Counted from the first letter of the stretch, positions 2,360 to 28,096 are shown. The stretch: 64,000 nt of DNA from Candidatus Saccharimonadota bacterium (GCA_003979185.1 RYWJ01000002.1:4650-68649); one strand, 5' to 3'. Made by a program: numbers and translations. Notes: a model not told the origin generated them from the sequence alone.

Positions 2360-2639
2360 TGGATATCTTGATAGCTATTATTCCTCTAAGCTAATAAAGG
2401 TTTTAGGTGATTTTCTCACCATGGAGTTCAATGCTGACTTCTTCATAGAATACAATATCGACAAGCAGGTAACTGTTATATCGAAGATGCGTAAGTTGGC
2501 GGACAAATTCTACACGCCTATATATTCGTTTCGCGAGGCTGATGCTGTAGTTATTCTATCTAACCTTTCAGAAGCTAAAAGACATCTCGAACGTAAGTAT
2601 AAAGAGCTAATTAAGTTTCAACGTGAGACTATTTTGTGA
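2346..2639 (+). CDS. Hypothetical phage protein
   Basis: ATG with AGGAG 7 nt upstream. Its stop overlaps the GTG start of the terminase large subunit. Confidence 0.35.
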   Translation: MKLIDGYLDSYYSSKLIKVLGDFLTMEFNADFFIEYNIDKQVTVISKMRKLADKFYTPIYSFREADAVVILSNLSEAKRHLERKYKELIKFQRETIL

Positions 2640-3832
2640 AATATCACGTCACTACTACTCTAGAGAAGATACAAGCCCTGTTTAGCAATGATGATTATCG
2701 TATCATCATCGAACAGGGCGGGACTTCTGCTGGCAAAACTGTGTCTACGCTGTGGGTGCTGCTTGACTATGCACTCGCCCACAGCAATAAGGTGATTAGT
2801 ATTGTTTCTGATACTTTTCCAAATCTCCGCAAAGGAGCTATGCGGGACTTCTTAGACATCTGCCGCGAGACGGGTGTTTTAGAAGTTGCCACATGGAACA
2901 AAGCAGAGAGTACTCTTACACTTCCCAATGGCACTATCGTGGAGTTTTTCTCTTGCGATATGATGGGCGCGCTCGGCGCAAGGCGGGATGTACTCTACAT
3001 CAACGAAGCTAACCGTATCACTTGGGAAACCTTCTCGCAGCTTGAGATTCGTACCCGCGAGAAGATCATCATCGACTTTAATCCAGTAAACAAATTTTGG
3101 GCACATACAGAGATAATCGAAAAGAAGCGAAAAGACTCTGCCTTCGTGAAGCTAACTTTTGAGGACAATGAAGCACTAGATGAGAATACTTATAACGCTA
3201 TTCTCGCACGTAAAGGCGACGGTACGAGCAACTGGTGGCGGGTATATGGCTTAGGCGAAATAGGGAGCTTAGAGGGCAATGTATATGAGGGTTGGGTGGC
3301 CGAAGATGAGCTATCGTCTGATCTAAAACTATTAAGGTATGGTATTGACTTCGGGTTCAGTAATGACCCGACGGCAGTAGTTGCTATATACGAAAATGAT
3401 TGTGGTGAGATTTGGCTTAAACAGGAATTATGTGAAACGAAGTTGCTCACGCCTCAGCTGGTTGTGAGATTGAAAGAAATTATTGAAAGTGATGGTGATG
3501 CACTTGTGGTCTGCGATAACGCTAGACCAGAAATCATCGCAGAGCTTCAAGCTAATGGTATACGTGCTATTGGCTGTGATAAGACGCCAGGTGAGAAGAT
3601 GAATGGTAAGCGTTATAATATTGAACTGGTGCAACGACGTAAGATTCACTACTTGCGTTGCGATAAGGAGCTTGAGCAAGAATACTTAACTTATGCCTGG
3701 CGCAAGAAGAAGTCCACTGGTGAAGTGCTTGATGAGCCAGAAGACGGACACGATCACTGCATGGATGCTATAGCTTATGCGATCAGAGATTTGGAGCGTA
3801 AGATGGTCGTCTATGCAATACCAAGAGTTTAA
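2636..3832 (+). CDS. terL: Terminase large subunit
   Basis: Walker A (GGTSAGKT), a DFNP/acidic ATPase core, and a C-terminal RNaseH-like nuclease region ending HDHCMDAIAYA. Size and layout are typical of PBSX/Terminase_3-type TerL. Confidence 0.85.
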   Translation: MKYHVTTTLEKIQALFSNDDYRIIIEQGGTSAGKTVSTLWVLLDYALAHSNKVISIVSDTFPNLRKGAMRDFLDICRETGVLEVATWNKAESTLTLPNGTIVEFFSCDMMGALGARRDVLYINEANRITWETFSQLEIRTREKIIIDFNPVNKFWAHTEIIEKKRKDSAFVKLTFEDNEALDENTYNAILARKGDGTSNWWRVYGLGEIGSLEGNVYEGWVAEDELSSDLKLLRYGIDFGFSNDPTAVVAIYENDCGEIWLKQELCETKLLTPQLVVRLKEIIESDGDALVVCDNARPEIIAELQANGIRAIGCDKTPGEKMNGKRYNIELVQRRKIHYLRCDKELEQEYLTYAWRKKKSTGEVLDEPEDGHDHCMDAIAYAIRDLERKMVVYAIPRV

Positions 3833-3859
3833 GAGCCGCAACTGTAGCGGTTCTTTTTT
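3833..3859 (+). terminator. Intrinsic terminator after terL
   Basis: Hairpin AGCCGC-aactgta-GCGGTT followed by CTTTTTT. Confidence 0.5.
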
Positions 3860-3860
3860 G

Positions 3861-3880
3861 TTGCTTACCACTTCGTAGCC
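3861..3880 (+). promoter_or_regulatory. Conserved phage motif copy a (TTGCTTACCACTTCGTAGCC)
   Basis: Lies directly after the terL terminator and 57 nt upstream of the capsid gene ATG. A 23-nt stretch is identical to copy e. Confidence 0.55.
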
Positions 3881-3937
3881 TAATTTTAATTGGCTTAGTC
3901 AGTGCCCAGTTGGGCGACGTGAAAGGAATATTAAAAA

Positions 3938-5683
3938 ATGGTAGAGAAAATTAAAACAATTTCTCTTTCAAAACTAAAGATTTCCGAAGCTGAAGTCAAC
4001 GGAGTAAGCGAGCGACGCGTAACCTTTGTTGCTTCTACAGATCGAGAAGATCGTGATTATGAAGTAGTAAAGATTGACACGTTTAGGTTACCAACAAAAG
4101 GCGGCGGAAGCATTAAGGTTGCAGATTTGCCAACTGGCGGATCCGATAATGTGGTTATTCCGCTTCTTACTAATCACGATATGTGGAATGTGGAAAAAAC
4201 AATTGGATCAGTCCGTAACGCTTCATTCGAGAACAACCGACTCATCTTTGAAGTAGGAATCTCCTCGCGACCATATGCACAAGACGTCTTTAAGCTAATC
4301 GAAGAGGGGCATCTCGACAATGCATTCTCGATTCGCTATGGGGACTATTCTCATAACTTTGATACCGGCGTAGACACAGATGGTGAAGTTATTGAGGTGT
4401 CTTTAGTTACTCGTGGGTCAAATAAAGACGCCCAGGTTTTAGAAGTTAAAGGAATGAAAGAGGATAACATGAATAAAGCGAAAACTCTGGAAGCCGATCA
4501 AGCTCCAGCAGAACAGACCAACACAGAAACAAATACCAATAATGATGGCGATAACAATGTGCCACAAGAGAATGACGAAGAAAAGGAAAAAGGTATGACA
4601 ACCGATAATAATACACACACAGAGTTTGCAAAAACTCAGGTTAAGACACCATCACAGGCGGCACGTGTCACAACATCGGCACCTGATGATTATTTGAAGT
4701 CCAAGCAAGCAGAACATGATTTTGCGCGCACTATTGTAGATCACTACGGTCAGTCTAGTCAAATGGTCATGAAATCATGGTCAAATAAGCTTAAAGAAAA
4801 AGGCATTACTGGTGACGCAATCTTGCCTGCTAGCCTTGAACAGATTTTCTTCAAAGCGTGGGAAGATCACTACGAAGCGTTGGGGACATTCCGACGAACT
4901 ACGAAGCTTTCGGGTGCTGTGTATGCATTCAATACTACAGATCGAGCATTGGGTCATAAAAAAGGCGAGAAAAAGGCCGAACAAAATTTGTCAGACATCC
5001 GTCGTGACTACAAGTTTAAGGTCATGTACAAGAAGCTGGCTATTGATTTGCAGGATCTCATTGACGACGAAACTGGCGAGCTGCTACGTTTGCGCTCTGA
5101 AGAACTTGCAAGTCGCCGTGGCGACGAGTTAGTCCGAGCAGTTTGGTTTGGCGATGGACGTACTGAGCCATCTGAGGGTAACCCAGATTATCGCCTCTTT
5201 GATGGAACTCGTGGCCCATGGAGCATGGTCAATGATATCAACAATGCGAATACTGCCGGATCATTCAGCCAGGCAGTTGCTACTCAAATTGCTAATGTAG
5301 CATCAGACTCTTTGTGGCAGAAGATTATTAAAGTTCGTGGTGCTATCCGTGGTGGCGTTGGACGTAAAATCATCGTTTTGCCAGAGGGGTCACTAACGGA
5401 GCTTGCAATCGCTACCAAAGACAACGGTGAGCCATTGTTCCCTCTCGGTACTGATATGCAGAATCTATTTGGCTCTTACATATTCGAGTCACCATACATG
5501 GCGACTTCTGGCTATGATGTATTGGGCTATCGTGAGGGTTCTTACCTATTGGCGACTGGCAACCCAATGGTACGCACAATGTTTGATCTCGACTATAACA
5601 CTGATGTTATGCTACAAGAGCAGGCTGTTGCTGGTACCGCTTACGGTCATAAGGTGATTGCTGGCTACAAGTCAAAAGCCTAG
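3938..5683 (+). CDS. Prohead protease / scaffold-like linker / HK97-fold major capsid protein fusion
   Basis: The N-terminus (VTFVASTDREDRDYEVV, LLTNHDMW..IGSV, FSIRYG) resembles HK97-type prohead serine proteases. The middle is an acidic Asn/Thr/Glu-rich low-complexity region. The C-terminal ~300 aa are capsid-like. Confidence 0.65.
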   Translation: MVEKIKTISLSKLKISEAEVNGVSERRVTFVASTDREDRDYEVVKIDTFRLPTKGGGSIKVADLPTGGSDNVVIPLLTNHDMWNVEKTIGSVRNASFENNRLIFEVGISSRPYAQDVFKLIEEGHLDNAFSIRYGDYSHNFDTGVDTDGEVIEVSLVTRGSNKDAQVLEVKGMKEDNMNKAKTLEADQAPAEQTNTETNTNNDGDNNVPQENDEEKEKGMTTDNNTHTEFAKTQVKTPSQAARVTTSAPDDYLKSKQAEHDFARTIVDHYGQSSQMVMKSWSNKLKEKGITGDAILPASLEQIFFKAWEDHYEALGTFRRTTKLSGAVYAFNTTDRALGHKKGEKKAEQNLSDIRRDYKFKVMYKKLAIDLQDLIDDETGELLRLRSEELASRRGDELVRAVWFGDGRTEPSEGNPDYRLFDGTRGPWSMVNDINNANTAGSFSQAVATQIANVASDSLWQKIIKVRGAIRGGVGRKIIVLPEGSLTELAIATKDNGEPLFPLGTDMQNLFGSYIFESPYMATSGYDVLGYREGSYLLATGNPMVRTMFDLDYNTDVMLQEQAVAGTAYGHKVIAGYKSKA

Positions 5684-5776
5684 TCCCCTCAGGTTCATAC
5701 ATAATAACCGAAAATGGTGAGGGGCTACTAACAGAAGATAGTAAACTACTCCTGACACAGTAAAAGAAAGGACGAC

Positions 5777-6184
5777 ATGAGTGACAAACCTATTATTTCC
5801 CAAGAAACGATGGCCGCGTTACTCGGTCGTCCTTTGAGTGACCTAGAGATAGCTAATTACGATCTATATTTAGAGCTAGCCATAGAGCGGCTTGATGATC
5901 TACTGTGCATTAAACTAGAAGACATGGATGATTTGCCAGTAAGGTTAAAGCTACTAATTGCTCGTGCTTTTAATGTCATGAAGCAGGAACAAGCAGCATC
6001 TGAATCTCACGGTATTGACAAGAAACAAGTCGAAGACTTCTCCATTAGCTTCCAGGCTGACGCGAGTAGCCCTATGACTTATTTCGTGGAACAAAACCTT
6101 TCGATATTAAATCAATACAGTAAGTGCCAAGGCTCTATTAGGAGCGGTAAGGTCTATTCACATGACTGTTTTCGATGTATTTAG
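5777..6184 (+). CDS. Head-tail connector (gp6-like) candidate
   Basis: Follows the capsid gene. The N-terminal pattern (LLGRPLSDLEIANYDLYLELAIERLDDL) is typical of gp6-like adaptor proteins. Confidence 0.45.
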   Translation: MSDKPIISQETMAALLGRPLSDLEIANYDLYLELAIERLDDLLCIKLEDMDDLPVRLKLLIARAFNVMKQEQAASESHGIDKKQVEDFSISFQADASSPMTYFVEQNLSILNQYSKCQGSIRSGKVYSHDCFRCI

Positions 6185-6521
6185 CCAAATTGACTATACA
6201 TTCCTCGAAATATCTAGGGGTAATGTTTATGGTAACCGTGTTATCAATCGACGTGTTCTACGTGGAGTTTTTAAGCTACGCGAAAAAATGAGTTCCTCCA
6301 ATAATATGGAGACTGTAGACTCGGACGCTCGCTTACATGCTCATACTAACGACTTTACAGTTAATCCTCATGAGCTGGTAGGCCAAGGGGTAGAAGTAAA
6401 TGGCCAGCAGTATAGTATAGAGGGGGTTTCTGTGGGTGCAAATTTTGATAATGGCGTCATAGAGCATCTGCGATTTGAACTACAAAAAGCTAATTTTGTG
6501 GAGGATTCAAATGGCGAATGA
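6162..6521 (+). CDS. Head-closure/adaptor candidate
   Basis: Assigned by position in the connector block and overlap with its neighbours. No motif recognised. Confidence 0.3.
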   Translation: MTVFDVFSQIDYTFLEISRGNVYGNRVINRRVLRGVFKLREKMSSSNNMETVDSDARLHAHTNDFTVNPHELVGQGVEVNGQQYSIEGVSVGANFDNGVIEHLRFELQKANFVEDSNGE

Positions 6522-6888
6522 CAATGCAGTGGCTCATGTTGCGGTCACGCTTGATGATAGAACTGGCGCATGGTTTGGTGGCAAGATGAATAATATCAAG
6601 GTTGGACTAAATACTATGGGCAAATCTATAGTATCTAGAGCTAAGATGACTGTACCTAAAAAGAGTGGTAACCTGAAAAAGTCCGATAGAGTAGAAGTAC
6701 GTGGCAATGTTTGTATCGTTTCTCTTGGTGGCGGAAGCATTAAATATGGTGACTATCAGGAGCGTGGTATGCGTAAAGATGGCACTCGTGTGGTTAAACA
6801 TTACACTACTGCAGGCACGCATGCCCAGTATCTACAGCAAGCTGGTCTGTCTGTCGTAAAAGAGGGTCTTAGAAAATGGTTACGTTAA
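6511..6888 (+). CDS. HK97 gp10-like tail-completion family protein
   Basis: ATG preceded by GGAGGA. KMTVPKKSGNLKKS and an RGxxK-rich C-terminus resemble the HK97 gp10 family. Confidence 0.45.
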   Translation: MANDNAVAHVAVTLDDRTGAWFGGKMNNIKVGLNTMGKSIVSRAKMTVPKKSGNLKKSDRVEVRGNVCIVSLGGGSIKYGDYQERGMRKDGTRVVKHYTTAGTHAQYLQQAGLSVVKEGLRKWLR

Positions 6889-7391
6889 GCATACTAAAAC
6901 TCTTAGAGAACAATGGCTTTGGAGAAATTGATAAAGACCTTTTCTGGGAGAAGCTTGGCTTGAACGAAACTGGTCTTTATATATCTGATATTGGATCTAG
7001 CCAAAGCCGTACAGCCAAGCGTTCTACAACCTATGAAATATTTAGTCGTGGTGAATCGGACGTAGAGGGATATATGATGATAGAAAAGGTATCTGATTTT
7101 CTAAATTCTCTATTTGATATTTGCAGACTACCATCTGTACCACCAATTACTGATTATGGATATCATGGTGTTTCGTTTCTGCCCGTGAGTACTATATCTA
7201 ACGTTGGAGTCGATATTAATGGTAGAGTTATTTACAGTATAACAGGTCAAGTGTATTGGTCTGATCGCTACAAAGAAACACCAGCACCACCGGTCAAGGC
7301 GATGTATCTAGCGTTAGAAAATGGAAAAGCGTTAAAAACGGAAAATGAAAAAGTAATTTGGAGAGAAGAATGGAAGAAATTGAGGGCGTAA
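6876..7391 (+). CDS. Hypothetical virion protein (tail terminator/minor capsid candidate)
   Basis: Assigned by position in the head-tail joining block only. Confidence 0.3.
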
Positions 7392-8611
7392 AGATAAGTC
7401 AGCTACCAAAAGCTAGTGCGGTTAGTGCAGGCGACCTTATTCCTGGAGTCATTAATGGAGAAACTCAAGCGATTGATGTTAACTTACTAAAAGGCCAAAA
7501 AGGAGACCAAGGTGATGCAGGTCCAGCAGGCCCCCAGGGTGAACAGGGACCTCAAGGCGAAAGGGGACCGCAGGGCGAGCAAGGCGTGGCCGGCCCACAA
7601 GGTGTGCAAGGTGAGCAGGGTCCTGCTGGTGTTGATGGTGCGCCTGGTCCAGCAGGGCCACAAGGCGAAAAAGGAGATCCTGGAGCTGGTATTGCTATTA
7701 GCGGTGAGGTGGAAACCTATGCGGACTTACCTACTAATTTAACCCCAGAAGATGCGGGCAAGTCATATATAGTTAAGGCTGATGGGCTTCTATACATCTG
7801 GAGTGGCATATCTTTCCCTGCAGATGGTGAGGGCACCACTTTTGTAGGACCACAAGGGCCTAAGGGTGACAAGGGTGATAAAGGTGATAAAGGTGAGCAG
7901 GGCGAGCAAGGCCCGCAAGGTATCCAGGGTGAGCAAGGTATCCAGGGGGAACAGGGACCTCAAGGCGAGCCAGGTACTGGTGGCGAGTTATACGATGAGT
8001 ATGGCCAGAATACGGACGGGGCTTTAACGCAGAAGTTCGTAAGTGATATATTGAACGCTCAAAATCCTGCTATAGGCTTAAGAGCAACAGCTGGCTCATA
8101 TAGCACCGCTTTAGGAGATAGTGCCAAGGCTTCTAATTATGGAACTGCTATTGGGCGGCAGGCCATAGCGAGTAGTCTGGGCTCTGTGGCTATGGGGGAT
8201 GGTGCGCGCGCTATGGCTAAAGGCGCTGTAGCTTTAGGGGTAGAATCGACGGCTACCATCGAAGGAGAAGTCAATATTGGCGCAAAGGCGGGGTACGGTT
8301 ATCAAGGAAGCAATAGCCGTGTTCTAGCTGGCCTACATGATGGTGTTGAAGATGACCACGCAACCACTGTTGCTCAACTAAATACTACCAAAACGGAGCT
8401 TGAAACCAAAATCGCAAATGATTTGATGGAATATTACAATAAAACCGAGTCTGACAATAAATTTGTTGACAAGACTGCAATTGTTCAGTCAACTGGTGAG
8501 TCCACAACTGCCATAATGAGTCAAAAAGCCATTACGGATATGATAGGTGGCGTGGAAGCTCGACTTGTGAGCCTAAATAGCGGAGAAGGAGTTCAAAATG
8601 ACAATCAATAG
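7370..8611 (+). CDS. Collagen-like repeat fibre protein with adhesin-like head repeats
   Basis: Two Gly-X-Y blocks (about 7494-7690 and 7850-7980). N-terminal KISQLPKA fibre-type start. C-terminal Ala/Gly-rich SxAxG repeats and [22 protein letters not shown] resemble trimeric autotransporter head/neck motifs. Confidence 0.7.
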
Positions 8612-9719
8612 TGAGATCTCTATTCTTGAACAGAATATTGCCAGCTCATACAATACCATAAAGAACAAAGGCGGTTCTTTGCCAGAGCAACTCAATACAG
8701 AGAATTTGGCTGGAGCTATAGCTACGTTGGAAGATGCGGGTGTTACTCCTGGCGAATATGGCGCATTATATTATTTAGTTGGGGTTAATGGTAAAACTGT
8801 TCTTCGTGGCGTACAGCTCAATACTATAGACGACTTTAATGCTATGTGTACAGATGGAAACCAACAGTCATCCATTACAATAAACGGTCAGTCTATTCTA
8901 AAAAGCACAATTGTAAGATATACCTTTGGGTCTGCTGAGTTAACCAGTCTACCAGATAACTTTTGCTATTATTTTTCAAACATGTCGCAAATGTCAAACA
9001 TGCCGGATTCAATCACTAGCATAGGTAGTAATTTTATGAGGGCGTGTCAGGCGTTCAATCAATCAATACATTTTAGCAATAATCTTCAAACTATTGGTAG
9101 TTATTGTTTAGCTAACAATTATAAACGTAGCGCCAATACAGATCTCTCAAATACGAAGTTGACCAGTTTACCAGACTACTTTATGGCTTGGTGCTATAAT
9201 TTTAACGGCAAGCTAACATTGCCAGCTTCGCTCAAAAGCATTGGCAATAGAGTGCTTCAATCATGCAATTCGTTTTCGCAAGTGTTAGAAATTCCAGAAT
9301 CAGTAGAATCTATTGGGGATTTCTTCTTGAGTTGGTGTCATAGTTACAATGTAGCAATAACGATTCCAGGAGGTGTAAGAAGCATCGGGGATTATTTTAT
9401 GAATACGTGCTATGCGTTTAACTCCGAGATTAGTCTTGGTGATAGTATTGAAACAATTGGGGATTATTTTATGAGTAGATGCATAGTATTTAATCAAGCC
9501 CTGACAATGCCAGCTTCGCTCAAAAGCATTGGCACCTCTTTCCTCAACCGGTGTATTTCATTAACTTATTACCCGACATTCAATTGTCCAAATTTGACTA
9601 CGATTGGGGACTATTTTCTCAATGAGTGCGCATATTTAAGCGGTACAGGTGGGCGGGTTGATCTTACTAATACAACAGTTGCAGAGATTGGCCGTGGCTT
9701 CTTGTGGGGGGTGTACTAA
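8598..9719 (+). CDS. BspA-type leucine-rich repeat (LRR_5-like) protein, N-terminal part of a split gene
   Basis: Reiterated ~23-aa units (IGxxFxxxCxxFNxxLxxPxSLxS). The ORF ends just after a G6 tract in the middle of a repeat unit. Confidence 0.6.
9706..9711 (+). repeat. Homopolymeric G6 tract at the junction of the two LRR ORFs
   Basis: The sequence reads ttg tgg ggg gtg tac taa. Removing one G gives [15 protein letters not shown], which restores the repeat consensus and fuses 8598-9719 to 9721-10203. Confidence 0.8.
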
Positions 9720-9720
9720 A

Positions 9721-17452: not shown

Positions 17453-17778
17453 GAGTTCAAATCCTGAATGACATCACGACCAGGTTTCCCAACAGCCAAA
17501 ATCGGATCGCCAGTCTTTGGATTTTGTCCAATGAGGATTTCTGATTTGCCATTAGTCCCATACACAATAATCTGTTGCTGACCATTAGCGTTTTGGCCGA
17601 ACTTAATACGCTCAGTGCCTTGAGCGTCATAATACTTAAACCCCTCCTTATCGATACGTACTACTTCAGTAAGCCCGTTTCTGATGACAATTTCGCCATT
17701 GGCTTCATTGATGCTTAAACCTCCAGCAAGAGAGCTGGTCACATTTGCTCCATTGCTTGTTACATTCTCTATAATCAT
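17449..17778 (-). CDS. Small tail/baseplate protein
   Basis: Assigned by operon position. No motif recognised. Confidence 0.3.
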   Translation of the reverse strand: MIIENVTSNGANVTSSLAGGLSINEANGEIVIRNGLTEVVRIDKEGFKYYDAQGTERIKFGQNANGQQQIIVYGTNGKSEILIGQNPKTGDPILAVGKPGRDVIQDLNS

Positions 17779-19358
17779 GCCAGCAGATCCTCCCCATTGA
17801 GTCTTGAGTAATTTAGAGTGAAGACGCCCTCTTCAATGTTAGTTCCATTAAGAGTTAGCTCTGTAATCAAGTTGTTGTTTCCAAACTGATAGGAGATCCC
17901 AGTAATTTGATAAATGCCATTGTAGTCACCTTTTGAAGTTTGTATGCGTATTAAATCCATGAGCTGAAAAGCAAAATCACCTTTAATTTGCGCCTTAACC
18001 ACTCTGGTATAATCGCGATGTTGTTTAATAATTGTGCGAGCGAAGAGGTTCGCCTGATCGTAACTTTGGAAGAACTGGTTGTCGCTAATTTCTAAGGTCT
18101 TGTCGCCATATTTCTGCACGGATTCATCATCATATGCGTCATACTCTAGAACCTCGTAGGTTTTAGCTGGCTCACCCCAAAGCTTCATCTCCGAGATTTC
18201 TACCGGATATGCGTGATGATTTGTAAACGTTATAATGTATGCCTTTGATGATAGTACGCCAGTAGCAGTTATACCAGACGTGACGGGAACGTCATGACTA
18301 TCAACTGCTGTGAACCAAGATACGGATGAAGCTTTACCTAGTGTAGGAGCTACAACATCATAGCACGGTTCGCCAAGGCTACAACTGATTGTGAATGTGT
18401 CGTTTGGACTGACTACCCACAAATCAGATGCTCCGCGACTAGAAGCTGACTTTGTGTAGACCTCTTGATATTCTTGGACTTCTCGCCGTTCAATATTAAT
18501 CTTAACATGATTAACCACATCTGATAGTTGTCCAGGAGTGAGCGACATAATATGATAATCGCTCAAATTAGCTTTAATATCAGTGTCACTTGCTACGCCA
18601 GCAGCAGATTCGAATCGAACAATACCTTTTTCATCTAGCCACATGAATCCATTCTCTGCTTGCACTAGTTTTTTCAAGGCATCGCCAACGCTCACGCCCA
18701 CATCGAAAAATACAAAAGGTATGACAAATTTACCTGGAGCTAAATGATATTGGGTTGGGGATAAACCATAGCTTTGCAGAATAGCGGCAATTACTTCATC
18801 TGTGCGTGCATTGCGCATATTTATTACAGTTTTAAGAGTTTGATTGCAGATATCGTACAAGAAGTCTATTACGTGATAATCAACCGTTCTAGAGCTGTCG
18901 TTAAGATCAGGTAGTCCATCCGTAATGCCTGCAATTTGCGGAACAAATTCTGTTGCACCTGGGTACTTAAATCCTGCCGACAACCGCATAGGTCGAGCTG
19001 GTAGGTTGTTAAGGCCTATAGGCGAATTGCGGTTGAGCGGAGTAAAATAGCCATCTGTATTGCTGAGTGAGAAATCGGCCATTGCGCATTGTATTTGATA
19101 CGGAAATTCTAGCCTCCGCTCCCATGAAGCAGACACGAGCCTGTCCGAATAGTCTTTATAATCATAGAAGTCCCAGCTTTGCGTATCAGCGTCACTTGCG
19201 GCGAACTTCAAAATATCTGAACCATCCAGAACAGACTCGTCTAATGTGAAAAAGCCACCATCGTTTAACTGCTTGTCAAAAGACACGTACAAGCGTACAA
19301 TTGGATTGATAATTTGCCCAAAAGCGGCTTTATGAAAATTATCGGTTACTTCAATCAT
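17775..19358 (-). CDS. Tail-associated/baseplate hub protein (Tal-like)
   Basis: 527-aa ORF directly downstream of the tape measure and Dit-like genes. Its position and size fit a siphovirus Tal. Confidence 0.45.
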   Translation of the reverse strand: MIEVTDNFHKAAFGQIINPIVRLYVSFDKQLNDGGFFTLDESVLDGSDILKFAASDADTQSWDFYDYKDYSDRLVSASWERRLEFPYQIQCAMADFSLSNTDGYFTPLNRNSPIGLNNLPARPMRLSAGFKYPGATEFVPQIAGITDGLPDLNDSSRTVDYHVIDFLYDICNQTLKTVINMRNARTDEVIAAILQSYGLSPTQYHLAPGKFVIPFVFFDVGVSVGDALKKLVQAENGFMWLDEKGIVRFESAAGVASDTDIKANLSDYHIMSLTPGQLSDVVNHVKINIERREVQEYQEVYTKSASSRGASDLWVVSPNDTFTISCSLGEPCYDVVAPTLGKASSVSWFTAVDSHDVPVTSGITATGVLSSKAYIITFTNHHAYPVEISEMKLWGEPAKTYEVLEYDAYDDESVQKYGDKTLEISDNQFFQSYDQANLFARTIIKQHRDYTRVVKAQIKGDFAFQLMDLIRIQTSKGDYNGIYQITGISYQFGNNNLITELTLNGTNIEEGVFTLNYSRLNGEDLLA

Positions 19359-19741
19359 GGCATCTGTTTGCTTTCTCTGAATGTGAGCTTGATATTATCG
19401 ACTAGTCCACAGCTGTTTATGACTTCGGTATTCGATAATGTCATCTTTGCAGTCATATCAGTAATGTTTAGGACCTCTGCTCCATCTACAGTTATTTTGG
19501 GATACTTAAGGTTAGAGTATTGGCGATCAACAAAGGCTTTTAATGCACTATAAGATTCCTGATCCATAGCAAATAAAGAAACTTCGTACGAACGTTTAGT
19601 TGATCCGTAGTAAGTAGAGATATTCCCATCAACGGTTTCTACGTCGGTTTCGTTAATAATCGGCGCAAGTGTAATAGGCGTTATGAGCGTTGCTCCAAAT
19701 GTCATTTGGTCACTATTATCTTGGATTGTCAGTGTAATCAT
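19355..19741 (-). CDS. Distal tail protein (Dit-like, short)
   Basis: Immediately follows the tape measure gene with overlapping codons. Confidence 0.35.
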   Translation of the reverse strand: MITLTIQDNSDQMTFGATLITPITLAPIINETDVETVDGNISTYYGSTKRSYEVSLFAMDQESYSALKAFVDRQYSNLKYPKITVDGAEVLNITDMTAKMTLSNTEVINSCGLVDNIKLTFRESKQMP

Positions 19742-21921
19742 GATAACCTCGATTGGTTAATTTGTGTTAATGCATGTTGTAACTCTTGAGCTAGTTCGCG
19801 TTTTGCTTGAGGGGAGGTTGCCAAGATGCCAGACAGGTTAATAGTAATATTCTGTGCAGCAAGCTTGGGTGTGCCAGTATTCTGGTCTACTTGCTCCGCT
19901 GGCACGACATATTCCCCTCTATGAACGACTCCAGCTACTTCATTAGGTGCGCCACGGCCGGTGTAGCCACCGTTGTTGAATCCGCGTATCATTCTCTTGC
20001 CATGCTCGATGGCTTGTGTGCTTATGGAGCCCATGACGACTGCCGTCGGATCTAAAACTAGAGATTGACCTTTATTTAACTCACTAGTCCATTTGACTAT
20101 TTCTGTATTTACTGTACGTAAACCCTCTTTTAATTTTTGATCTTGAACACGGTTATATTCGTTCCAATATGCGGCAGCCGCTTCTGCACCCTTTTGTCTT
20201 GCATCTTCTACTTGTTTATTAAGACTTTCGCGCTGTTTGTTGAATCGTTCTTGCAGACTCTCTACTTCATCAAGCAAAATCTCTTCACGCACAGAGTTGA
20301 GTAAGTCACGGTGCTTATTCATGAAAGCCAATTCATCATCTAGCTCACCTTGCAGATTTGCAAGCTTTTGCTCAAGCTTTATCCGATCGTTCTCATTTTG
20401 TAGACGGATTTCTTCTTCTTGAGCCAAAGTTTCTTGTTGATAAAGATGTTTTTCCTTTTCAAGAGCAAATTGGACTTGTGCTAATTTTTGTTTGTTATAG
20501 TCATTGTTATAACGTTGCAAGAAGTTAAGCTGAGCCATTAACTCGTTGACTGTTTCTTGGTGGCTACGTTCCTGTTTTGCCATCGTAACGTTAAAATCGG
20601 CAGTCCGTTCGTCTATTGCGCGCCGATAATCAATATTAGCTTCTTCAATTTGACTAGTAAGTTTCTCTAGATTTTCTTCATGATTGACGGCAATTTGTTT
20701 GAGATCGCGCCGATAATCGCGTTCAAGTTCCGCAAGTTGTTTTTCGAGTTTGGCAACTTGCTCAGCCGCGTCGTTCATAGCACTACCAAGTTGTTTGGTA
20801 TTGCCCTCCATCTCCTGAACTGTGGTGCTTGCATTGCCAATTGTTTCATCTGCTTCATCAACAGAGTCTACCATATTGTCAACTGCACTGGAAGCTGCCC
20901 ACATTGCGCCCATAGTCGCAATAGCGGCAACAAGACCAACAATCCCTCCTCGTGCAATTTTCGTTAGCAGACTCATATTACTCAATGCTTTAGTAAGGCT
21001 TTTTATGCTTTTTACGCCGATGGCAGTTGCACCAGCTAGCCCACTGGCACCGGCCAAAATACCTATAGTTGTAGCAAGGGTTGCTACGAGAGATTGATTA
21101 TTGGTGATCCATTGAGCTATGCCACTAATGATTGGACCAAAGCTATTAAACATGGACCCCATAGTTTGTTTCACTTGCTCGATTGCGGTGTCTAATTGCT
21201 GTTGAGATCCAGCTAGTGTTTGCGTGTAGCTGTCGGCATTTCCTGCAAAGACTCCACCTTCTGCAAGTACGCCATTATATACCGCCTGCTGTTTTTCCGC
21301 TTGAGATAATTGATTGGCTGTTTTACCTAAAGAACTTGCATATTCTTCATACATTTTTGCGATATTCTTCTGAATGCCAGACGCGTCAGAAAGCACTGAG
21401 TTTTCCTGTCGTATACCTTGAGTGGTTGCCACAACTGCTTCGCCAAGAGAATAATTAGCTTGTCGGTTATACACGGCGGCATCGGTCATGATTTTAATAA
21501 GCTCAGTAGCCTCACTTACCGAATACCCATAGCCTTGCAAGTTCTTCATTGCTTCCGCAGCTTCTGCTTGCGATAATAGACCGCTTGAGGAAAGCTCCTG
21601 GACGGCAGAAATTGATTGCGAAATGGAGTTCCCTAAACCGCTAGCAACTGCTTTAACCCCATTCATAGAAGCCTGATATTGGTTAAAAGAGTCAACAACA
21701 TCGCCAATTGCGGATGCAGTACCACTTAAAGCTAGATGCGTCGTGGCGAGTTGCCCAATACTAGAAGTAAGTTCAGAAAATCCAGCTGACATAGTCTTGG
21801 TTTCTGAGGCGCTTTTTTGTGTCATATCCGACAAAGTTACCTGAAAATCGCCTAACTGGCGTTGTGCTTCAGTAGTATCTACAATAATTCTAAAAGTCGC
21901 TTGTCCAAGATTTTCATTCAT
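19738..21921 (-). CDS. Tail tape measure protein
   Basis: 727 aa. Contains long Gln/Glu/Ala-rich coiled coils and a central Gly/Ala-rich hydrophobic segment, flanked by chaperone-like and distal tail genes. Confidence 0.8.
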   Translation of the reverse strand: MNENLGQATFRIIVDTTEAQRQLGDFQVTLSDMTQKSASETKTMSAGFSELTSSIGQLATTHLALSGTASAIGDVVDSFNQYQASMNGVKAVASGLGNSISQSISAVQELSSSGLLSQAEAAEAMKNLQGYGYSVSEATELIKIMTDAAVYNRQANYSLGEAVVATTQGIRQENSVLSDASGIQKNIAKMYEEYASSLGKTANQLSQAEKQQAVYNGVLAEGGVFAGNADSYTQTLAGSQQQLDTAIEQVKQTMGSMFNSFGPIISGIAQWITNNQSLVATLATTIGILAGASGLAGATAIGVKSIKSLTKALSNMSLLTKIARGGIVGLVAAIATMGAMWAASSAVDNMVDSVDEADETIGNASTTVQEMEGNTKQLGSAMNDAAEQVAKLEKQLAELERDYRRDLKQIAVNHEENLEKLTSQIEEANIDYRRAIDERTADFNVTMAKQERSHQETVNELMAQLNFLQRYNNDYNKQKLAQVQFALEKEKHLYQQETLAQEEEIRLQNENDRIKLEQKLANLQGELDDELAFMNKHRDLLNSVREEILLDEVESLQERFNKQRESLNKQVEDARQKGAEAAAAYWNEYNRVQDQKLKEGLRTVNTEIVKWTSELNKGQSLVLDPTAVVMGSISTQAIEHGKRMIRGFNNGGYTGRGAPNEVAGVVHRGEYVVPAEQVDQNTGTPKLAAQNITINLSGILATSPQAKRELAQELQHALTQINQSRLS

Positions 21922-21938
21922 GTTTTTAGGTTATTTAT

Positions 21939-21957
21939 GCTACGAAGTGTTAAGCAA
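21939..21957 (-). promoter_or_regulatory. Conserved phage motif copy c (TTGCTTAACACTTCGTAGC)
   Basis: Lies 17 nt upstream of the tape measure ATG on the minus strand. Confidence 0.55.
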
Positions 21958-22106
21958 GCATGGTATAATAGTAATGTTCATTGTATATATTATTGCATAG
22001 TCTTAGTTCTAAAATGAGCTAACGTTTGTAAGCTAGTACTAAGGCTAGTAATATGCAGTGAACGAGTATATTAAACGTTGGCTCTTTTTTGAGCGTGGAG
22101 ATATAA

Positions 22107-22829
22107 GTGGGAATTATTATTGGGGGAAAATATAATGGCTATAAGATCTACTGTAATAGAGATTATAAGTATTTGTACATAAAAGTAGATGATGTGATAG
22201 TCGGTATCACGAAACGTAATATATCTGCATATAAAGAGAGATCCCAAAATGGACTAAGTGATGCTATTTATGCTATCGAATGGCAAAAAGGCGAAAGGTC
22301 GCTAATCAAAATACCTAGGTCATGGTCAGAAATAATGATATCTGGTTGTGAATTTGGCCCACTTGATGAAAAGAGCTCGAGAAAAAATAGAGAAAACAGC
22401 CGTTATATTTTCGCTAGCATATTGTCATGTATTATTATAGTTGCATGCGTAATAACTGGAGTTATGATTAGCAGAGGCGATACGAATAACGTTGTTTCTA
22501 GCAGCCAGCCCAAAACTACAAGAAAAAAATGGTATGTCTGGGACAAAGAAAGCACACCTGAAGAAGCAGATGTAGTCATAATCATGGGTGAATTCACTAG
22601 CGGCTATGGAGGCATAGGCACCATGGGTGGTTCTGCTAAAAACTTTACATCTAAGACATTAAGCTACATCCAGATAACCATTGGCTTATATGCAGGGGAG
22701 GCTAAGGTAGGTAGTTGTTTTGCCAACCAGAGCTACCTTGCGCCTGATACTTATTGGAATTTCGAAGCTACATGTACTAACTCAAGCTCCGCCTCATCCT
22801 ATAAAGTTGAGGATGTGACTTATTGGTAG
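22107..22829 (+). CDS. Membrane-anchored protein on the opposite strand inside the tail module (moron candidate)
   Basis: GTG start. One central TM helix (YIFASILSCIIIVACVITGVMI). The C-terminal beta-rich domain contains an IGLYAGEAKVG segment resembling FxLYD-type domains. Confidence 0.35.
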   Translation: MGIIIGGKYNGYKIYCNRDYKYLYIKVDDVIVGITKRNISAYKERSQNGLSDAIYAIEWQKGERSLIKIPRSWSEIMISGCEFGPLDEKSSRKNRENSRYIFASILSCIIIVACVITGVMISRGDTNNVVSSSQPKTTRKKWYVWDKESTPEEADVVIIMGEFTSGYGGIGTMGGSAKNFTSKTLSYIQITIGLYAGEAKVGSCFANQSYLAPDTYWNFEATCTNSSSASSYKVEDVTYW

Positions 22830-22831
22830 AT

Positions 22832-23221
22832 TTACTTATACGCCTCATCTTGTAGCTTGTTGACATACTCAGCATTATGCTTGGCATAGCTTTTATCATT
22901 CGTCGATAGAGTGGTGGCAGCGTTAATTTTGCCACTATCAATATTTAGTCTATAATGCAGTTTCTCAGCCGCTTTAACTAAGGCGACAGCTTCTTCAAGA
23001 ACGAACGCTAAGCGCGTCAAGTTTCCCTTACTATCAATACCACTATGATAATTACGTTTGAAATCCACAACCGCTTGCCACCCATAATAGTATCCAAGCT
23101 GTGCGCATAAGTAAAAATAAGGTGGAATATCTGGCTTATGCTGAGGATTTAGCCGATCGACCGCCCACCCCTCAACAGTTTTGCGGTCTTCTGGAGTCAT
23201 TAAATCAAGGAGATTAGGCAT
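22832..23221 (-). CDS. Tail assembly chaperone candidate (second)
   Basis: Lies upstream of the tape measure and overlaps the preceding ORF by 8 nt. Confidence 0.35.
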   Translation of the reverse strand: MPNLLDLMTPEDRKTVEGWAVDRLNPQHKPDIPPYFYLCAQLGYYYGWQAVVDFKRNYHSGIDSKGNLTRLAFVLEEAVALVKAAEKLHYRLNIDSGKINAATTLSTNDKSYAKHNAEYVNKLQDEAYK

Positions 23222-23648
23222 TGTCAGCCTTAGCCATAATTTGTTGATAGAAACCCAAAATCTCTTTATAACTAAAATCGTTCAGCAGCTTTTTCCAGTT
23301 TTCTTCGTTATCAGTTGACCATAGCTTTAGGTGTGCCTTTTGAGCATATTTTAGGGCTTCAGTAATTTGTTTTTGTGCCTCAGCCATATCAGCCCCAGCC
23401 TGTTTGTATTCATCGGTTTGTCGCAAAGTGGCTAGACCATCCGCGTCTTTATTTTCAATAAGCTTACTTTCGCGATCGTAGAGATTCTGATATGTAGTTC
23501 GTACTTCGTCGACTGCCCTAGTAGCGTCATCAAGACGCTGTTTTAGGTCTGCTTCTGCTCCAGCTCCTAGCCTGCGCACGCGAAACACTCCATAACCTTT
23601 AATTTCCGCCTCTATTTCATAAGGTTTAGCTTCTATACTTATAGTCAT
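23214..23648 (-). CDS. Tail assembly chaperone candidate (first)
   Basis: First gene after motif copy d. Acidic, helical 144-aa protein upstream of the tape measure. Confidence 0.35.
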   Translation of the reverse strand: MTISIEAKPYEIEAEIKGYGVFRVRRLGAGAEADLKQRLDDATRAVDEVRTTYQNLYDRESKLIENKDADGLATLRQTDEYKQAGADMAEAQKQITEALKYAQKAHLKLWSTDNEENWKKLLNDFSYKEILGFYQQIMAKADNA

Positions 23649-23692
23649 ATCTATATCTATCCATTTAAGTTTATATGGTTTATGTATAACTT

Positions 23693-23711
23693 GCCTACGA
23701 AGTGGCAGGAA
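23693..23711 (-). promoter_or_regulatory. Conserved phage motif copy d (TTCCTGCCACTTCGTAGGC, degenerate 5' half)
   Basis: Lies 44 nt upstream of the 23648 ATG on the minus strand, back-to-back with copy e. Confidence 0.45.
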
Positions 23712-23718
23712 AGACTAG

Positions 23719-23738
23719 TTGCTTACCACTTCGTAGCC
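23719..23738 (+). promoter_or_regulatory. Conserved phage motif copy e (TTGCTTACCACTTCGTAGCC)
   Basis: Lies 16 nt upstream of the 23755 ATG. The 23-nt string GTTGCTTACCACTTCGTAGCCTA is identical to copy a. Confidence 0.55.
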
Positions 23739-23754
23739 TAGCTATTCTTATGAT

Positions 23755-24093
23755 ATGGATATTATTTTGAACCAAATTGCAGTCTGGTCACCATGCCTAG
23801 TAAGCAGTCTTAATGTACGGGAAATGCCTAAAGGTGAAAGATTCCTTATGCCTGGAACAGTTATTTATAGAATCTCTGAAACACCTATATATAGATACAT
23901 CAAAAACTACACTATCAAAAAAGTGAAATTTAGCTTATTTGTGCGCACAGCATATCGCGATGATAAGCTAGTGGAGCAGCAACTTGACGAAACGGCAAAG
24001 AAGCTTACAAAAGAATATGTACTTAATGCTATTTCAGCTGGTGGTATGAATTTCACTTATACACCATATTCTGTGGATATGGGGGCAAAATAA
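23755..24093 (+). CDS. Hypothetical virion protein
   Basis: ORF behind motif copy e. No motif recognised. Confidence 0.3.
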   Translation: MDIILNQIAVWSPCLVSSLNVREMPKGERFLMPGTVIYRISETPIYRYIKNYTIKKVKFSLFVRTAYRDDKLVEQQLDETAKKLTKEYVLNAISAGGMNFTYTPYSVDMGAK

Positions 24094-24659
24094 TGGCAAC
24101 AGTTTCGCTACCGTATCCAAATCTTGTATTTGCCCCTCTCGACAAGCTTACTGCCGAAGAGATGAACCAAATTGTTGCAAATTATACGGCTATCGCTAAT
24201 GCTTTCCCTCTTACCGCCGATCAAATTGCTACTGGTGCGATAACAAGCGCTAAGTTAGCAAATGGGTCTGTGGGTATGGATGCGATTAACTGGTCGGCTT
24301 TTCCTATGAAGATTACGTTCGACGACGTAAGTTTTGCGTTAAGCACCAACTGGCAAGTTGTGACATCTATTAACGTGTCAGATTTTCCTACTGGTTCCCA
24401 CATGCTGGTGTTCGGTCAAAGTCAATTCTCTAATGACGGGGAAGAAACTGGCGTAGACATGCAACTGGTTTATGGTGGCTATACATCGAATGTGTATAAC
24501 GATGTTTTTAGGTGGAGCACATCAAACACAGTGTCTTGGATCTTTGAGAAAACCGCGACAGTTTCAACGATAAATCTTCAAAATAAGAAAAATAGTAACG
24601 CTTCTGCTCTTAATGTTAGATCTGGCTGGCGACATATGTACGCAGTGAGGGTTGCCTAA
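24093..24659 (+). CDS. Hypothetical fibre/receptor-binding-like protein
   Basis: The N-terminus (LDKLTAEEMNQIVANYTAIANAF ... ITSAKLANGSV) resembles the N-termini of phage fibre proteins. Confidence 0.3.
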   Translation: MATVSLPYPNLVFAPLDKLTAEEMNQIVANYTAIANAFPLTADQIATGAITSAKLANGSVGMDAINWSAFPMKITFDDVSFALSTNWQVVTSINVSDFPTGSHMLVFGQSQFSNDGEETGVDMQLVYGGYTSNVYNDVFRWSTSNTVSWIFEKTATVSTINLQNKKNSNASALNVRSGWRHMYAVRVA

Positions 24660-24850
24660 CCTTTACGGCTTTTCTGCCCATATTTAGCTATGCGAGCGGC
24701 AACCGCTTTTTTGGCACGCTCGCTGCGCTGCTCGGGAGTGAGATTGGCATTCATTGCCTTAGCTCCAGCTTGATGCGCTTTTTTGTATTTTGCTAACTCA
24801 GCTTTAAGTCTGGCGTTTTCTTCTTTTAGTTTTATGAGTTCATCGTTCAT
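24656..24850 (-). CDS. Small coiled-coil/basic protein S2 (paralog of 15357-15557)
   Basis: N-terminal heptad-like ELIKLKEENARLKAELAKYKK. The C-terminal 27 aa are identical to S1. Confidence 0.5.
   Translation of the reverse strand: MNDELIKLKEENARLKAELAKYKKAHQAGAKAMNANLTPEQRSERAKKAVAARIAKYGQKSRKG
24663..24745. repeat. 83-bp direct repeat, copy 2
   Basis: See 15364-15446. The offset between copies is 9299 bp. Confidence 0.9.
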
Positions 24851-24938
24851 TTTTCTTACTCCTAGCCCCTGGCGGAGGGAGTAAGGGTATCGACCTTGAT
24901 TTAATTAGCTAAGTTTGATATTATTTAGTTAAGCATTG

Positions 24939-25001
24939 TTAGAAACGCTTCCGTTTGGAGGTGTTTCTTTTTGGTATGAAAACTGTCTTTAATCGTTTCA
25001 T
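24939..25001 (-). CDS. Possible 20-aa micro-ORF upstream of S2
   Basis: ATG preceded by GGAGAAAGGAGCGGT. Translation MKRLKTVFIPKRNTSKRKRF. Confidence 0.2.
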   Translation of the reverse strand: MKRLKTVFIPKRNTSKRKRF

Positions 25002-25055
25002 ACCGCTCCTTTCTCCGCCAGTTTTATTATGTTAATGAACCCTTACTATCTATAG

Positions 25056-25077
25056 TATATCACGCATGCGTGATATA
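25056..25077. promoter_or_regulatory. Perfect 22-bp palindrome (TATATCACGCA|TGCGTGATATA), operator candidate
   Basis: Read directly. It lies between the divergent S2 operon and the P2 gene. Confidence 0.5.
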
Positions 25078-25173
25078 TGCAATACTTTTTGTGAAGATTT
25101 TTGTAAAATATAGCGGAGTTTTCCACAATCCGATTATGTTTGCGGTTATGCTGGCATTTGGTATAATGAGAGT

Positions 25174-25446
25174 ATGGCAATCAATATTATCAAAGAAAAC
25201 TATCAAAATGGAGATGGTCAAGATGCAACGAAGATCGAAATTGCTAATGGTGATTTGGCTGCGTTGAAGGCTGCAACTGAGCAGTATGGTGTTCGTGACA
25301 TTACTGATATGATAGCTTTTTCTATCGGTCTACTTAATGAGGCTGCCGGTCGTCCAGTAGCAGCAACCGATAAGGATGGGCGTTTAATAAAATTTATGCC
25401 TTCGAAAGCAATTACCAAAGATGGTTCAACAAATCAAAACCAGTAA
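25174..25446 (+). CDS. Hypothetical small protein P2 (paralog of 14975-15226)
   Basis: Extended -10 (TGGTATAAT, 25159-25167) lies 6 nt before the ATG, which is leaderless geometry. Protein similarity to P1. Confidence 0.4.
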   Translation: MAINIIKENYQNGDGQDATKIEIANGDLAALKAATEQYGVRDITDMIAFSIGLLNEAAGRPVAATDKDGRLIKFMPSKAITKDGSTNQNQ

Positions 25447-25780
25447 ACCAGTTTTAGATAAATATAAAGACACGCTTCAGCCGATGGTTGACGAGGCTCT
25501 TGCAGTGCAAAATTTAGCTCCAGCTGTAAAGGATGCAATAGCACAAAATAAACCTCTGAATGAGGGGATTCAAGATGTAACAACGGAAGCAATCGAGCGA
25601 AACCCTAAAACAAGAGATGCACTTGATACTTGGTATGCAAACAGTAAGGCTATCCGCAATAGTAAATCGGAGTTGCGAAAACCGAGTTATTGGATTCCGA
25701 TTGTTTTAACAGGACTTATCGGTATAGTCGGCATTATTCTGTCTATAATCTCACTCATGAGTGGTACAAAGCCATCTTGA
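25421..25780 (+). CDS. Hypothetical tail-anchored membrane protein
   Basis: C-terminal TM helix (WIPIVLTGLIGIVGIILSIISLM). The start codon is uncertain. Confidence 0.35.
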   Translation: MVQQIKTSKPVLDKYKDTLQPMVDEALAVQNLAPAVKDAIAQNKPLNEGIQDVTTEAIERNPKTRDALDTWYANSKAIRNSKSELRKPSYWIPIVLTGLIGIVGIILSIISLMSGTKPS

Positions 25781-25805
25781 CAATTGCGCCTATGTTTGCT
25801 ACAAT
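25777..25805 (+). promoter_or_regulatory. Sigma70-type promoter (TTGACA-17 nt-TACAAT)
   Basis: Hexamers read directly. The -35 overlaps the stop codon of the preceding gene. Confidence 0.5.
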
Positions 25806-27324: not shown

Positions 27325-27353
27325 TTGACATTTTTTAGCTAGTGATATATAAT
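27325..27353 (+). promoter_or_regulatory. Consensus sigma70 promoter (TTGACA-17 nt-TATAAT)
   Basis: Read directly. It points into about 480 nt with no convincing ORF, followed by the Asn-rich fragment. Confidence 0.5.
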
Positions 27354-28070: not shown

Positions 28071-28096
28071 TATTCCAATCCTATAATCCATCAAAG

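Follow-up and report, generated by a model that had tools for sequence, protein, structure and literature searches.

Repeated elements in a Saccharibacteria prophage as probable late promoters with a sigma70-type -10 element and a prophage-confined upstream motif

Introduction

In the MotA/AsiA-dependent middle promoters of phage T4, a host sigma70-type -10 element (TAnnnT) works with a phage-specific box, recognised by a phage protein, in place of the -35 element. The MotA box has the consensus (a/t)(a/t)(a/t)TGCTT(t/c)A, is centred at -30 and lies about 12 nucleotides (nt) before the -10. Class II activator promoters (MarA/SoxS class II, Mu Mor/C and P2 Ogr) carry an asymmetric site of ~18-20 bp over the -35 position, together with a usable -10 and a poor -35. 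In temperate siphovirus-like phages with regulators such as RinA, ArpU, LtrC or TP901-1 Alt, the late virion genes need a small phage protein whose gene lies near those of the terminase, and are served by a single late promoter 5' of terS. Here we analyse a repeat, TTGCTTAnCACTTCGTAG, present in six copies (at most three mismatches) in a 64,000-nt stretch of DNA from a Candidatus Saccharimonadota bacterium (GCA_003979185.1 RYWJ01000002.1:4650-68649; hereafter the window), all of them inside a prophage and each directed at a virion gene block. Its closest working analogies appear to be T4 middle promoters and class II activator promoters, and no named family fits, as spacing, sequence or gene content fails.

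To our knowledge, almost nothing is known about gene switching in Candidate Phyla Radiation bacteria or their phages. A paper on the phages of these bacteria that covers 120 predicted Saccharibacteria prophages never uses the word 'promoter' (PMC10746230). We propose, with moderate confidence, that the repeats are the upstream halves of six late promoters used by the host polymerase together with a phage factor.

Results

Six copies of one motif precede virion gene blocks

A search of the window for TTGCTTANCACTTCGTAG with at most three mismatches returned exactly six matches (Table 1), compared with a mean of 0.13 copies in shuffled sequence, and six copies were reached in 0 of 100 shuffles. 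An earlier sequence-only reading of this DNA had reported six copies in front of structural gene blocks, always oriented as the downstream gene; both points are borne out (6/6 for orientation), with coordinates right to within 1-2 nt. Likewise, copies 1 and 3 do lie directly 3' of hairpins resembling terminators, and the identical 23-mer that had been seen in two copies was located at 3860-3882 and 23718-23740. The distances to the start codon, previously given as 16-78 nt, measure 18, 18, 21, 46, 59 and 78 nt. Among the names given to the downstream genes, those of the capsid (a protease-capsid fusion), the portal (portal+MuF) and the tape measure were recovered, while 'tail tube' and 'chaperone' lack hidden Markov model (HMM) support.

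A look-up of a window protein retrieved the same prophage with its left flank (L001) as well as a circularly permuted phage contig (L002). Comparison of attL, attR and attP identified an att core, CACCACAAGGGTGTT, at L001 4720-4734 and window 27451-27465; this gives a prophage of ~32.0 kb, just ~4.5 kb of which is beyond the window. The window's 36.5 kb of host DNA contained no extra copies of the motif, and neither did the off-window left (early) arm of the prophage or the 4.7 kb of host DNA on L001. The frequency in non-phage DNA, a check proposed with the original observation, is thus zero in ~41 kb of host sequence, and the copies are confined to the prophage. A phage variant of 95-99% identity keeps the motif at 3861-3878 without change. 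When IMG/VR was scanned for the exact motif, six single matches came up, which is the chance level. One match to TAGCCCNCC at L001 4454 was rejected, being the reverse of a host Shine-Dalgarno sequence and outside the prophage.

A -10-like hexamer lies at a fixed distance from the motif

We aligned 16 sites from the window phage and two related phages (L005 and L009/L021), anchored on the last base of CTTCGT or GCTGGG. A hexamer of the form nAnnAT lies exactly 8 nt 3' of the motif and 18 nt after TTGCTT, with an A 7 nt after the hexamer; setting the hexamer at -12 to -7 places the window motif at -36 to -19. In the window the hexamers read TTTAAT, TAAATA, CATTAT, TAACCT, TATACA and TATTCT. The sequence-only reading had argued against an ordinary sigma70 promoter from the lack of a -10-like sequence 17 nt after TTGCTT; that argument falls, as the hexamer is found at 18 nt. 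At the 8-nt offset, an A at the second hexamer position (A2) is present in 13/16 sites and a T at the sixth (T6) in 14/16 (binomial P about 5e-5 and 3e-6, respectively), and 11/16 sites have both, whereas at every other offset from 0 to 21 the two occur together in no more than 4/16 sites. The predicted +1, the seventh base after the hexamer, is an A in 13 of the 16. A sigma70-type -10 at a fixed distance makes the sites look like promoters of the host polymerase with the motif in the place of the -35, rather than those of a wholly foreign polymerase.

Upstream of the hexamer, two blocks can be distinguished. The -36 to -27 block, T-W-G-C-Y-Y-A-C-C-R, is common to the phage group, and the -26 to -21 block is constant within a phage, being CTTCGT in the window phage and L005 and GCTGGG in L009/L021; the 8 nt between this block and the hexamer are not conserved. 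Conservation peaks at -36, -34/-33, -29/-28 and -24/-22, well into the spacer, where region 4 of sigma does not read bases. At the -35 position, the window phage has TTGCTT, a 3/6 match to TTGACA at 18 nt, and L005 and L021 mostly have TAGCCC. The asymmetry of the site and a contact spacing of ~10-11 bp suggest that two adjacent major grooves are filled by a protein, or by a protein together with sigma. Taken as promoters, which they very probably are, the repeats would carry a sigma70-type -10 with leaderless or short-leader starts, a reading we regard as likely.

The sites are syntenic in related phages

Portal proteins of about 48-52% identity led to L005 and L009/L021. L005 has the gene order of the window and its own repeat, (GCC)TAGCCCnCCGCTTCGTGTT, with the version TAGCCCnCCGCTTCGT, at five sites: in the terL-capsid gap, at the stop of the fibre gene before a 193-aa gene, at the portal, at the tape measure (other strand) and at a 113-aa homolog of the window gene at 23755 (aa, amino acids). 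L009/L021 carry the version ..ACCGGCTGGG, also at five sites, before the capsid, 197-aa, chaperone-like and portal genes and, divergently, before a 112-aa homolog of the 23755 gene. The correspondence extends to details: promoter 2 overlaps the final codons and stop of the gene for a leucine-rich repeat (LRR) protein, as its L005 counterpart overlaps an upstream stop codon (Table 1), the L005 portal promoter has an equivalent hairpin in front, and the L009/L021 counterpart of promoter 5 stands in front of an MTISI.. homolog. Conserved positions with drifting sequence fit a promoter element and its reader evolving together.

Further relatives came from a genome scan (one locus) and a metagenome scan (four loci), the species-genome locus being a Saccharibacteria metagenome-assembled genome. 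In L007/L019, a fourth relative, the capsid and portal positions are occupied by ATGCACATyATAA, which is unrelated to the motif (L019 4393-4405 and 676-688). The L007 portal element is a perfect 32-bp palindrome (TATAATGTGCATATTG/CAATATGCACATTATA) at 9948-9979; a pair at L007 16646/16781 was rejected as a long hairpin in the early region without the -10 architecture. Distant relatives (L008, L011, L013 and L014) have ordinary promoters and no such motif.

Several virion transcripts appear to be leaderless

The ATG codons of the portal, tape-measure and 112-aa (23755) genes lie 9, 6 and 6 nt after the hexamer and have no Shine-Dalgarno sequence. The same gaps, again with no Shine-Dalgarno sequence, recur in L005 (9, 7 and 6 nt) and L021 (9 and 6 nt). 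As a 6-nt gap puts the predicted +1 on the A of the ATG, the three transcripts are apparently leaderless or have leaders of at most 3 nt. A consensus TATAAT also lies 6-10 nt before ATG codons without Shine-Dalgarno sequences at host genes 35999, 43593 and 59386 and at phage genes 14975 and 25174, and most other genes carry AGGAGG-type sites. Judged by this arrangement elsewhere in the genome, the hexamer occupies the position expected of a genuine -10. On the basis of these several genes, leaderless initiation may be widespread in the host, and the gene starts suggest that leaderless and Shine-Dalgarno-led translation are mixed in this Saccharibacteria genome. At promoter 2, whose hexamer TAAATA lacks T6, a perfect TATAAT is nearby at 10214-10219, and the predicted start is 10222 or 10226.

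The capsid mRNA is predicted to have a longer leader, which contains a conserved stem-loop (3898-3918, +; GUC..GAC and GCCC..GGGC) beginning at the predicted +2. Eight pairs, two with compensatory changes, are formed across the window phage, L005, L021 and L019, and the -6 to -1 bases before it are not conserved. That conservation starts at +1/+2 supports the predicted capsid start. The stem-loop is probably a 5'-terminal stabiliser or a regulatory hairpin.

The probable late promoters form a class distinct from canonical promoters of the same phage

Consensus scans found perfect or near-perfect TTGACA-N17-TATAAT promoters in the phage, before the tRNA gene, the operon of a 100-aa gene and the integrase, and an outward-reading unit near the right end (Table 1). 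The host's main sigma would thus be canonical, and the late promoters, with weak -10 elements and no canonical -35, a distinct class. With terminator hairpins immediately 5' of copies 1 and 3, the genes downstream of these copies can be served by no other promoter, and promoters 5 and 6 form a back-to-back divergent pair with 6 bp between them. What had been proposed as a phage-specific late promoter class is supported in its separately started virion units, confinement to the prophage, location after terminators, divergent pair and synteny in relatives, and fails in its argument from a missing -10.

Table 1. Late promoters, canonical promoters, phage genes and counterpart sites in relatives (window coordinates unless a contig is named)
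Feature	Position	Strand	Details
Late promoter 1, before protease-capsid gene (ATG 3938)	3861..3897	+	motif 3861-3878; TTTAAT 3885-3890; predicted +1 A 3897
Terminator-like hairpin + T run abutting promoter 1, ends early/terminase operon	3831..3860	+	hairpin 3831-3855; 9 pairs, 5 GC, T tail
Late promoter 2, before 187-aa gene (ATG 10282)	10186..10222	+	motif 10186-10203, 3 mismatches; TAAATA 10210-10215
Terminator-like hairpin GCCCCCAAGCATGGGGG + TTTT, directly 5' of promoter 3	10865..10887	+	hairpin 10865-10885
Late promoter 3, before portal+MuF (ATG 10927)	10888..10927	+	motif 10888-10905; CATTAT 10912-10917; predicted +1 A 10924; no Shine-Dalgarno, near-leaderless
Late promoter 4, before tape measure	21921..21957	-	motif 21957-21940; TAACCT 21933-21928; predicted +1 = A of ATG 21921 (leaderless)
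Late promoter 5, before 144-aa + 129-aa genes (ATG 23648)	23676..23712	-	motif 23712-23695, 3 mismatches; TATACA 23688-23683; predicted +1 A 23676
Late promoter 6, before 112-aa + 188-aa genes	23719..23755	+	motif 23719-23736; TATTCT 23743-23748; predicted +1 = A of ATG 23755 (leaderless)
TTGACA-N17-TATAAT promoter, phage tRNA	16405-16377	-	12/12 (consensus scan)
TTGACA-N17-TACAAT promoter, 100-aa-integrase operon	25777-25805		11/12 (consensus scan)
TTGACA-N17-TATAAT promoter, outward-reading unit near right end	27325-27353		12/12 (consensus scan)
Large terminase (terL)	2636-3832		Pfam/PHROG scans
Prohead protease-capsid fusion	3938-5683	+	Pfam/PHROG scans
Adaptor proteins; collagen-like and BspA-LRR proteins	phage module of window		Pfam/PHROG scans
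Portal+MuF	10927-13272	+	Pfam/PHROG scans
CHAP-type endolysin	phage module of window		Pfam/PHROG scans
Tape measure	19738-21921	-	Pfam/PHROG scans
Tyrosine integrase	26357-27271		Pfam/PHROG scans
Counterpart of promoter 1, L005	L005 4178-4199		syntenic site
Counterpart of promoter 1, L021	L021 2846-2855		syntenic site
Counterpart of promoter 2, L005	L005 9242-9263		overlaps stop codon of upstream gene
Counterpart of promoter 4, L005	L005 20165-20140		hexamer-ATG gap 7
Counterpart of promoter 6, L005	L005 21548-21569		hexamer-ATG gap 6
Counterpart of promoter 6, L021	L021 19714-19705	-	hexamer-ATG gap 6
Capsid leader stem-loop, L005	L005 4218-4240
Capsid leader stem-loop, L021	L021 ~2879-2900
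Capsid leader stem-loop, L019	L019 ~4424-4446

Search for a protein that reads the motif

The sequence-only reading had recognised no sigma factor, RNA polymerase or activator in the window, and with just ~4.5 kb in the off-window arm, we extended the search to the whole phage. Pfam, PHROG and NCBIfam scans of 48 prophage open reading frames (ORFs), including all the larger ones, were read down to E=1; four short ORFs, namely two early genes (77 and 32 aa) and two membrane-type proteins (119 and 150 aa), were judged from their sequences. The earlier statement holds for the whole phage, left arm included: the 48 scanned ORFs gave no match to an RNA polymerase, sigma factor, MotA/AsiA, RinA/ArpU/LtrC, Mor/C, Ogr/Delta, AraC-type, recognisable helix-turn-helix or other DNA-binding family. 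The whole 32-kb phage genome has no ORF of the length of a T7-type RNA polymerase and no RNA_pol match. All ORFs above 250 aa were assigned (virion, lysis, RtcB, terminase or integrase) except a 527-aa ORF at 17775-19358, which has only weak PHROG tail-protein matches in its C-terminal ~150 residues (best E 3.6e-6).

Among the small early proteins, a basic 112-aa orphan (L001 7512-7850, off the window, and distinct from the product of the 23755 gene) recurs in all four phages (window phage, L005, L021 and L019). In the first three of these, the next gene codes for a thioredoxin-like CxxC protein whose tail is basic (L001 7847-8152), and in L021 the pair lies directly before terS. A homology search for the orphan family gave two matches and an exhaustive search 59 representatives among 1.8 billion clusters. 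Its AlphaFold2 model is of moderate confidence (predicted local distance difference test score, 72); Foldseek against the PDB returned no match with E below 0.8, and a profile search against the PDB and Pfam returned none. The orphan is a candidate for the reader by position and conservation only.

Weighing the explanations

In the model that we favour, host RNA polymerase with its primary sigma would read the weak -10, and a phage-encoded specificity factor, either a class-II-type activator or a sigma-region-4-like protein, would read the motif standing in for a proper -35. Virion genes would stay silent until the early operon has made the factor, and transcription would then restart after the terminators in six units: capsid-head-fibre, 187-aa, portal-to-lysis, 144/129-aa, tape measure-to-tail and 112/188-aa. 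From architecture, spacing and synteny across three phages, we infer that transcription starts at these sites and that the host polymerase is used; towards dependence on a phage factor reading -36 to -19, we lean only slightly. Several observations weigh against the model. No factor has been found, the early 112-aa orphan, the best conserved of its kind, having neither a PDB match nor a DNA-binding signature. The TTGCTT of the window phage, 18 nt 5' of the hexamer, could act as a weak -35 for a host sigma, so that a factor is perhaps not strictly needed, and the hexamers TAAATA, TATACA and TTTAAT are poor, each missing A2 or T6. Recent copying partly explains why sites within a phage are identical (the 23-mer in the window and a 37-nt pair in L005), and the host DNA scanned for the motif amounts to only about 41 kb. 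Furthermore, four RNA-labelled runs proved to be assembled contigs of the 95-99% variant from which 5' ends are not obtainable, and one of them, X25, is probably DNA, since its depth is even across the whole prophage and the att junction. Contig starts at 3896 (X25) and 10926 (X26) adjoin predicted starts and are not counted as evidence.

The host RNA polymerase might instead read the sites alone, either through its primary sigma, with TWGCYY as a weak -35 across an 18-nt spacer, or through an alternative sigma with TWGCYYACCR as its -35. TTG does occupy -36 to -34 in 8/16 sites and T-x-G-C is present in most, a normal -10 and an A at +1 can be seen, no phage regulator turned up in the profile and fold searches, and a -36 to -27 block common to three phages with ~50% identical proteins is what a conserved host reader would be expected to leave. 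We nevertheless judge this unlikely: TAG replaces TTG in half of the sites, the spacer is 18 nt long, the -10 elements are weak, and conservation is strong through -29/-28, -24 and -22, where sigma70 region 4 reads no sequence. The -26 to -21 block moreover varies between phages, L007/L019 have an unrelated motif at this location, the 41 kb of host DNA are free of such sites, and constitutive expression of virion genes is hard to square with lysogeny. A quite improbable alternative is an operator, through which a prophage repressor or silencing protein would occupy weak late promoters during lysogeny. Asymmetric, multi-copy operators exist in the Bacillus phage phi105, an asymmetric 18-nt site over the -35 and spacer is where a bound protein would block polymerase, and an unassigned 100-aa gene is co-transcribed with the integrase from the 11/12 TTGACA-N17-TACAAT promoter. 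Yet there is no copy at the early promoter region beside attP, where a repressor must act, and without the motif the promoters of the relatives would have no -35 at all (TAGCCC); operator placement can vary, so that exact -10 spacing in 16/16 sites and gene-matched orientation better suit a promoter element. That the motif acts in RNA, through processing, stability or translation in a 5' leader, or is a promoter of a T7- or N4-kind non-host polymerase, seems highly improbable to us. Its orientation is always that of the gene, and contiguous conservation over 18-23 nt resembles promoters of single-subunit polymerases, but a promoter that transcribes the motif would not fit between copies 1 and 3 and the terminators directly 5' of them, the 32-kb phage has no polymerase-sized unassigned gene or RNA_pol match, the conserved -10 and +1 lie 3' of the motif and not within it, and the motif shows no potential to form an N4-type hairpin.

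Prophage, host setting and neighbouring features

The left part of the window is a tailed-phage module by Pfam and PHROG scans, and cellular genes follow from 28203 onward (gatCAB, pcrA-like, EF-G, cysS and addA-like). The prophage is that of a ~32-kb temperate siphovirus-like phage in a Candidatus Saccharibacteria chromosome, and the samples carrying its sequence are mouse-gut or faecal runs. The EF-G of the host belongs to a cluster at 90% identity in which the named members are 'Candidatus Saccharibacteria bacterium'. In attP, a direct repeat, AAAGAAAATCTTT, stands on either side of the 15-bp core CACCACAAGGGTGTT (L002 2770-2830; window 27433-27470; L001 4712-4760); these repeats are likely integrase arm or accessory sites. 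Within the minus-strand tail block, a gene on the opposite strand (22107-22829, +) encodes a 240-aa membrane-type product. As 22110-22832 is exactly skipped in the 95-99% identical variant, this gene is a moron-like insertion.

Two paralogous two-gene modules lie at 14975-15557 and 24645-25446. Their plus-strand genes (83 and 90 aa) are both apparently leaderless behind TATAAT, and their minus-strand genes (66 and 64 aa) are 93% identical over a shared 101-nt repeat and have the same C-terminus, NLTPEQRSERAKKAVAARIAKYGQKSRKG. Three genes encode a C-terminal domain of the Fib_succ_major / Lcl_C-like kind (..YYWSRT..SVRCV): that of a surface-type host protein on the left side of the prophage (L001 2842-4452, -), a phage early gene (L001 6942-7505, +) and a short ORF right of the prophage (window 27827-28171, +); the phage may have acquired a host copy. 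The phage tRNA gene (window 16074-16183, -) scores 51.8 bits in Rfam and is missed by ARAGORN. Its anticodon loop, CUCCAAA, reads CCA (Trp), the gene is 110 nt long with a ~36-nt insertion at the variable-arm position, and it is placed in an ORF-poor gap behind the perfect canonical promoter at 16405-16377 (-). The same phage encodes an RtcB RNA ligase (window 28-759 / L001 8879-10000). The insertion may be an intron or an extra arm, and whether the two genes have a function in tRNA repair or as a decoy is a question we pose.

Discussion

Like T4 middle promoters, the sites pair a -10 of host type with a phage-specific box, and TGCTT(A), the MotA box core, is even found within the window motif. 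A MotA/AsiA middle promoter was nevertheless rejected. In the window TGCTTA lies at -35 to -30, 17 nt 5' of the hexamer; L005 and L021 lack it at their syntenic sites, and no homologs of the two proteins were found in the 48 ORFs scanned. Unlike in T4, TGCTT is centred near -33, the relatives have TAGCCC, conservation extends to -19, and the genes served are late virion genes of a temperate siphovirus-like Saccharibacteria phage. Class II activator sites resemble the motif in asymmetry, position and conserved contacts about 10-11 bp apart (-34 and -23 in the window); the site sequence is unrelated and no AraC-type, Mor/C or Ogr/Delta homolog was found in the 48 ORFs scanned, and the likeness serves as a working analogy only.

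The RinA, ArpU, LtrC and Alt systems invite comparison with the conserved 112-aa/thioredoxin-like pair directly before terS in L021. In contrast to their single promoter, the window phage has six on both strands, with terS and terL on the early transcript; such a system was rejected, as no homolog was found in the 48 ORFs scanned, no motif lies 5' of terS or terL, and the six promoters are downstream of terL. T7-like promoter specificity groups also have, in related phages, differing long contiguous elements at syntenic positions, suggesting co-evolution of promoter and reader, but here no phage RNA polymerase was found and a sigma70-type -10 lies 3' of the element. A promoter for an extracytoplasmic function (ECF) sigma, with AAC at -35, CGT at -10, 16-17 nt between them and a start about 7 nt 3' of CGT, was rejected too: CGT follows TTGCTT by just 7 nt, the positions 16-17 nt 5' of CGT show no conservation, and L021 has GCTGGG in place of CTTCGT.

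More tentatively, the Saccharibacteria phages may possess a new family of promoter-specificity factors, in which a small orphan would redirect the host polymerase to the 18-bp element at -36 to -19 and co-evolve with it into specificity groups. The proposed groups would be TTGCTTAnCACTTCGT, TAGCCCnCCGCTTCGT, ..ACCGGCTGGG and ATGCACATyAT, and the early 112-aa orphan and its thioredoxin-like neighbour are the candidates for the factor.

The locus offers a testable promoter grammar for a TM7 prophage, consisting of canonical promoters for the tRNA and lysogeny genes, a late class built from the -36 to -19 element and a -10, and leaderless virion mRNAs. Six transcription starts are predicted to the nucleotide (3897, 10222/10226, 10924, 21921, 23676 and 23755), and the motif provides a short DNA bait with which the regulator could be fished out. 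The late promoters could also be turned into inducible parts for work on Saccharibacteria, whose genetics is still very limited.

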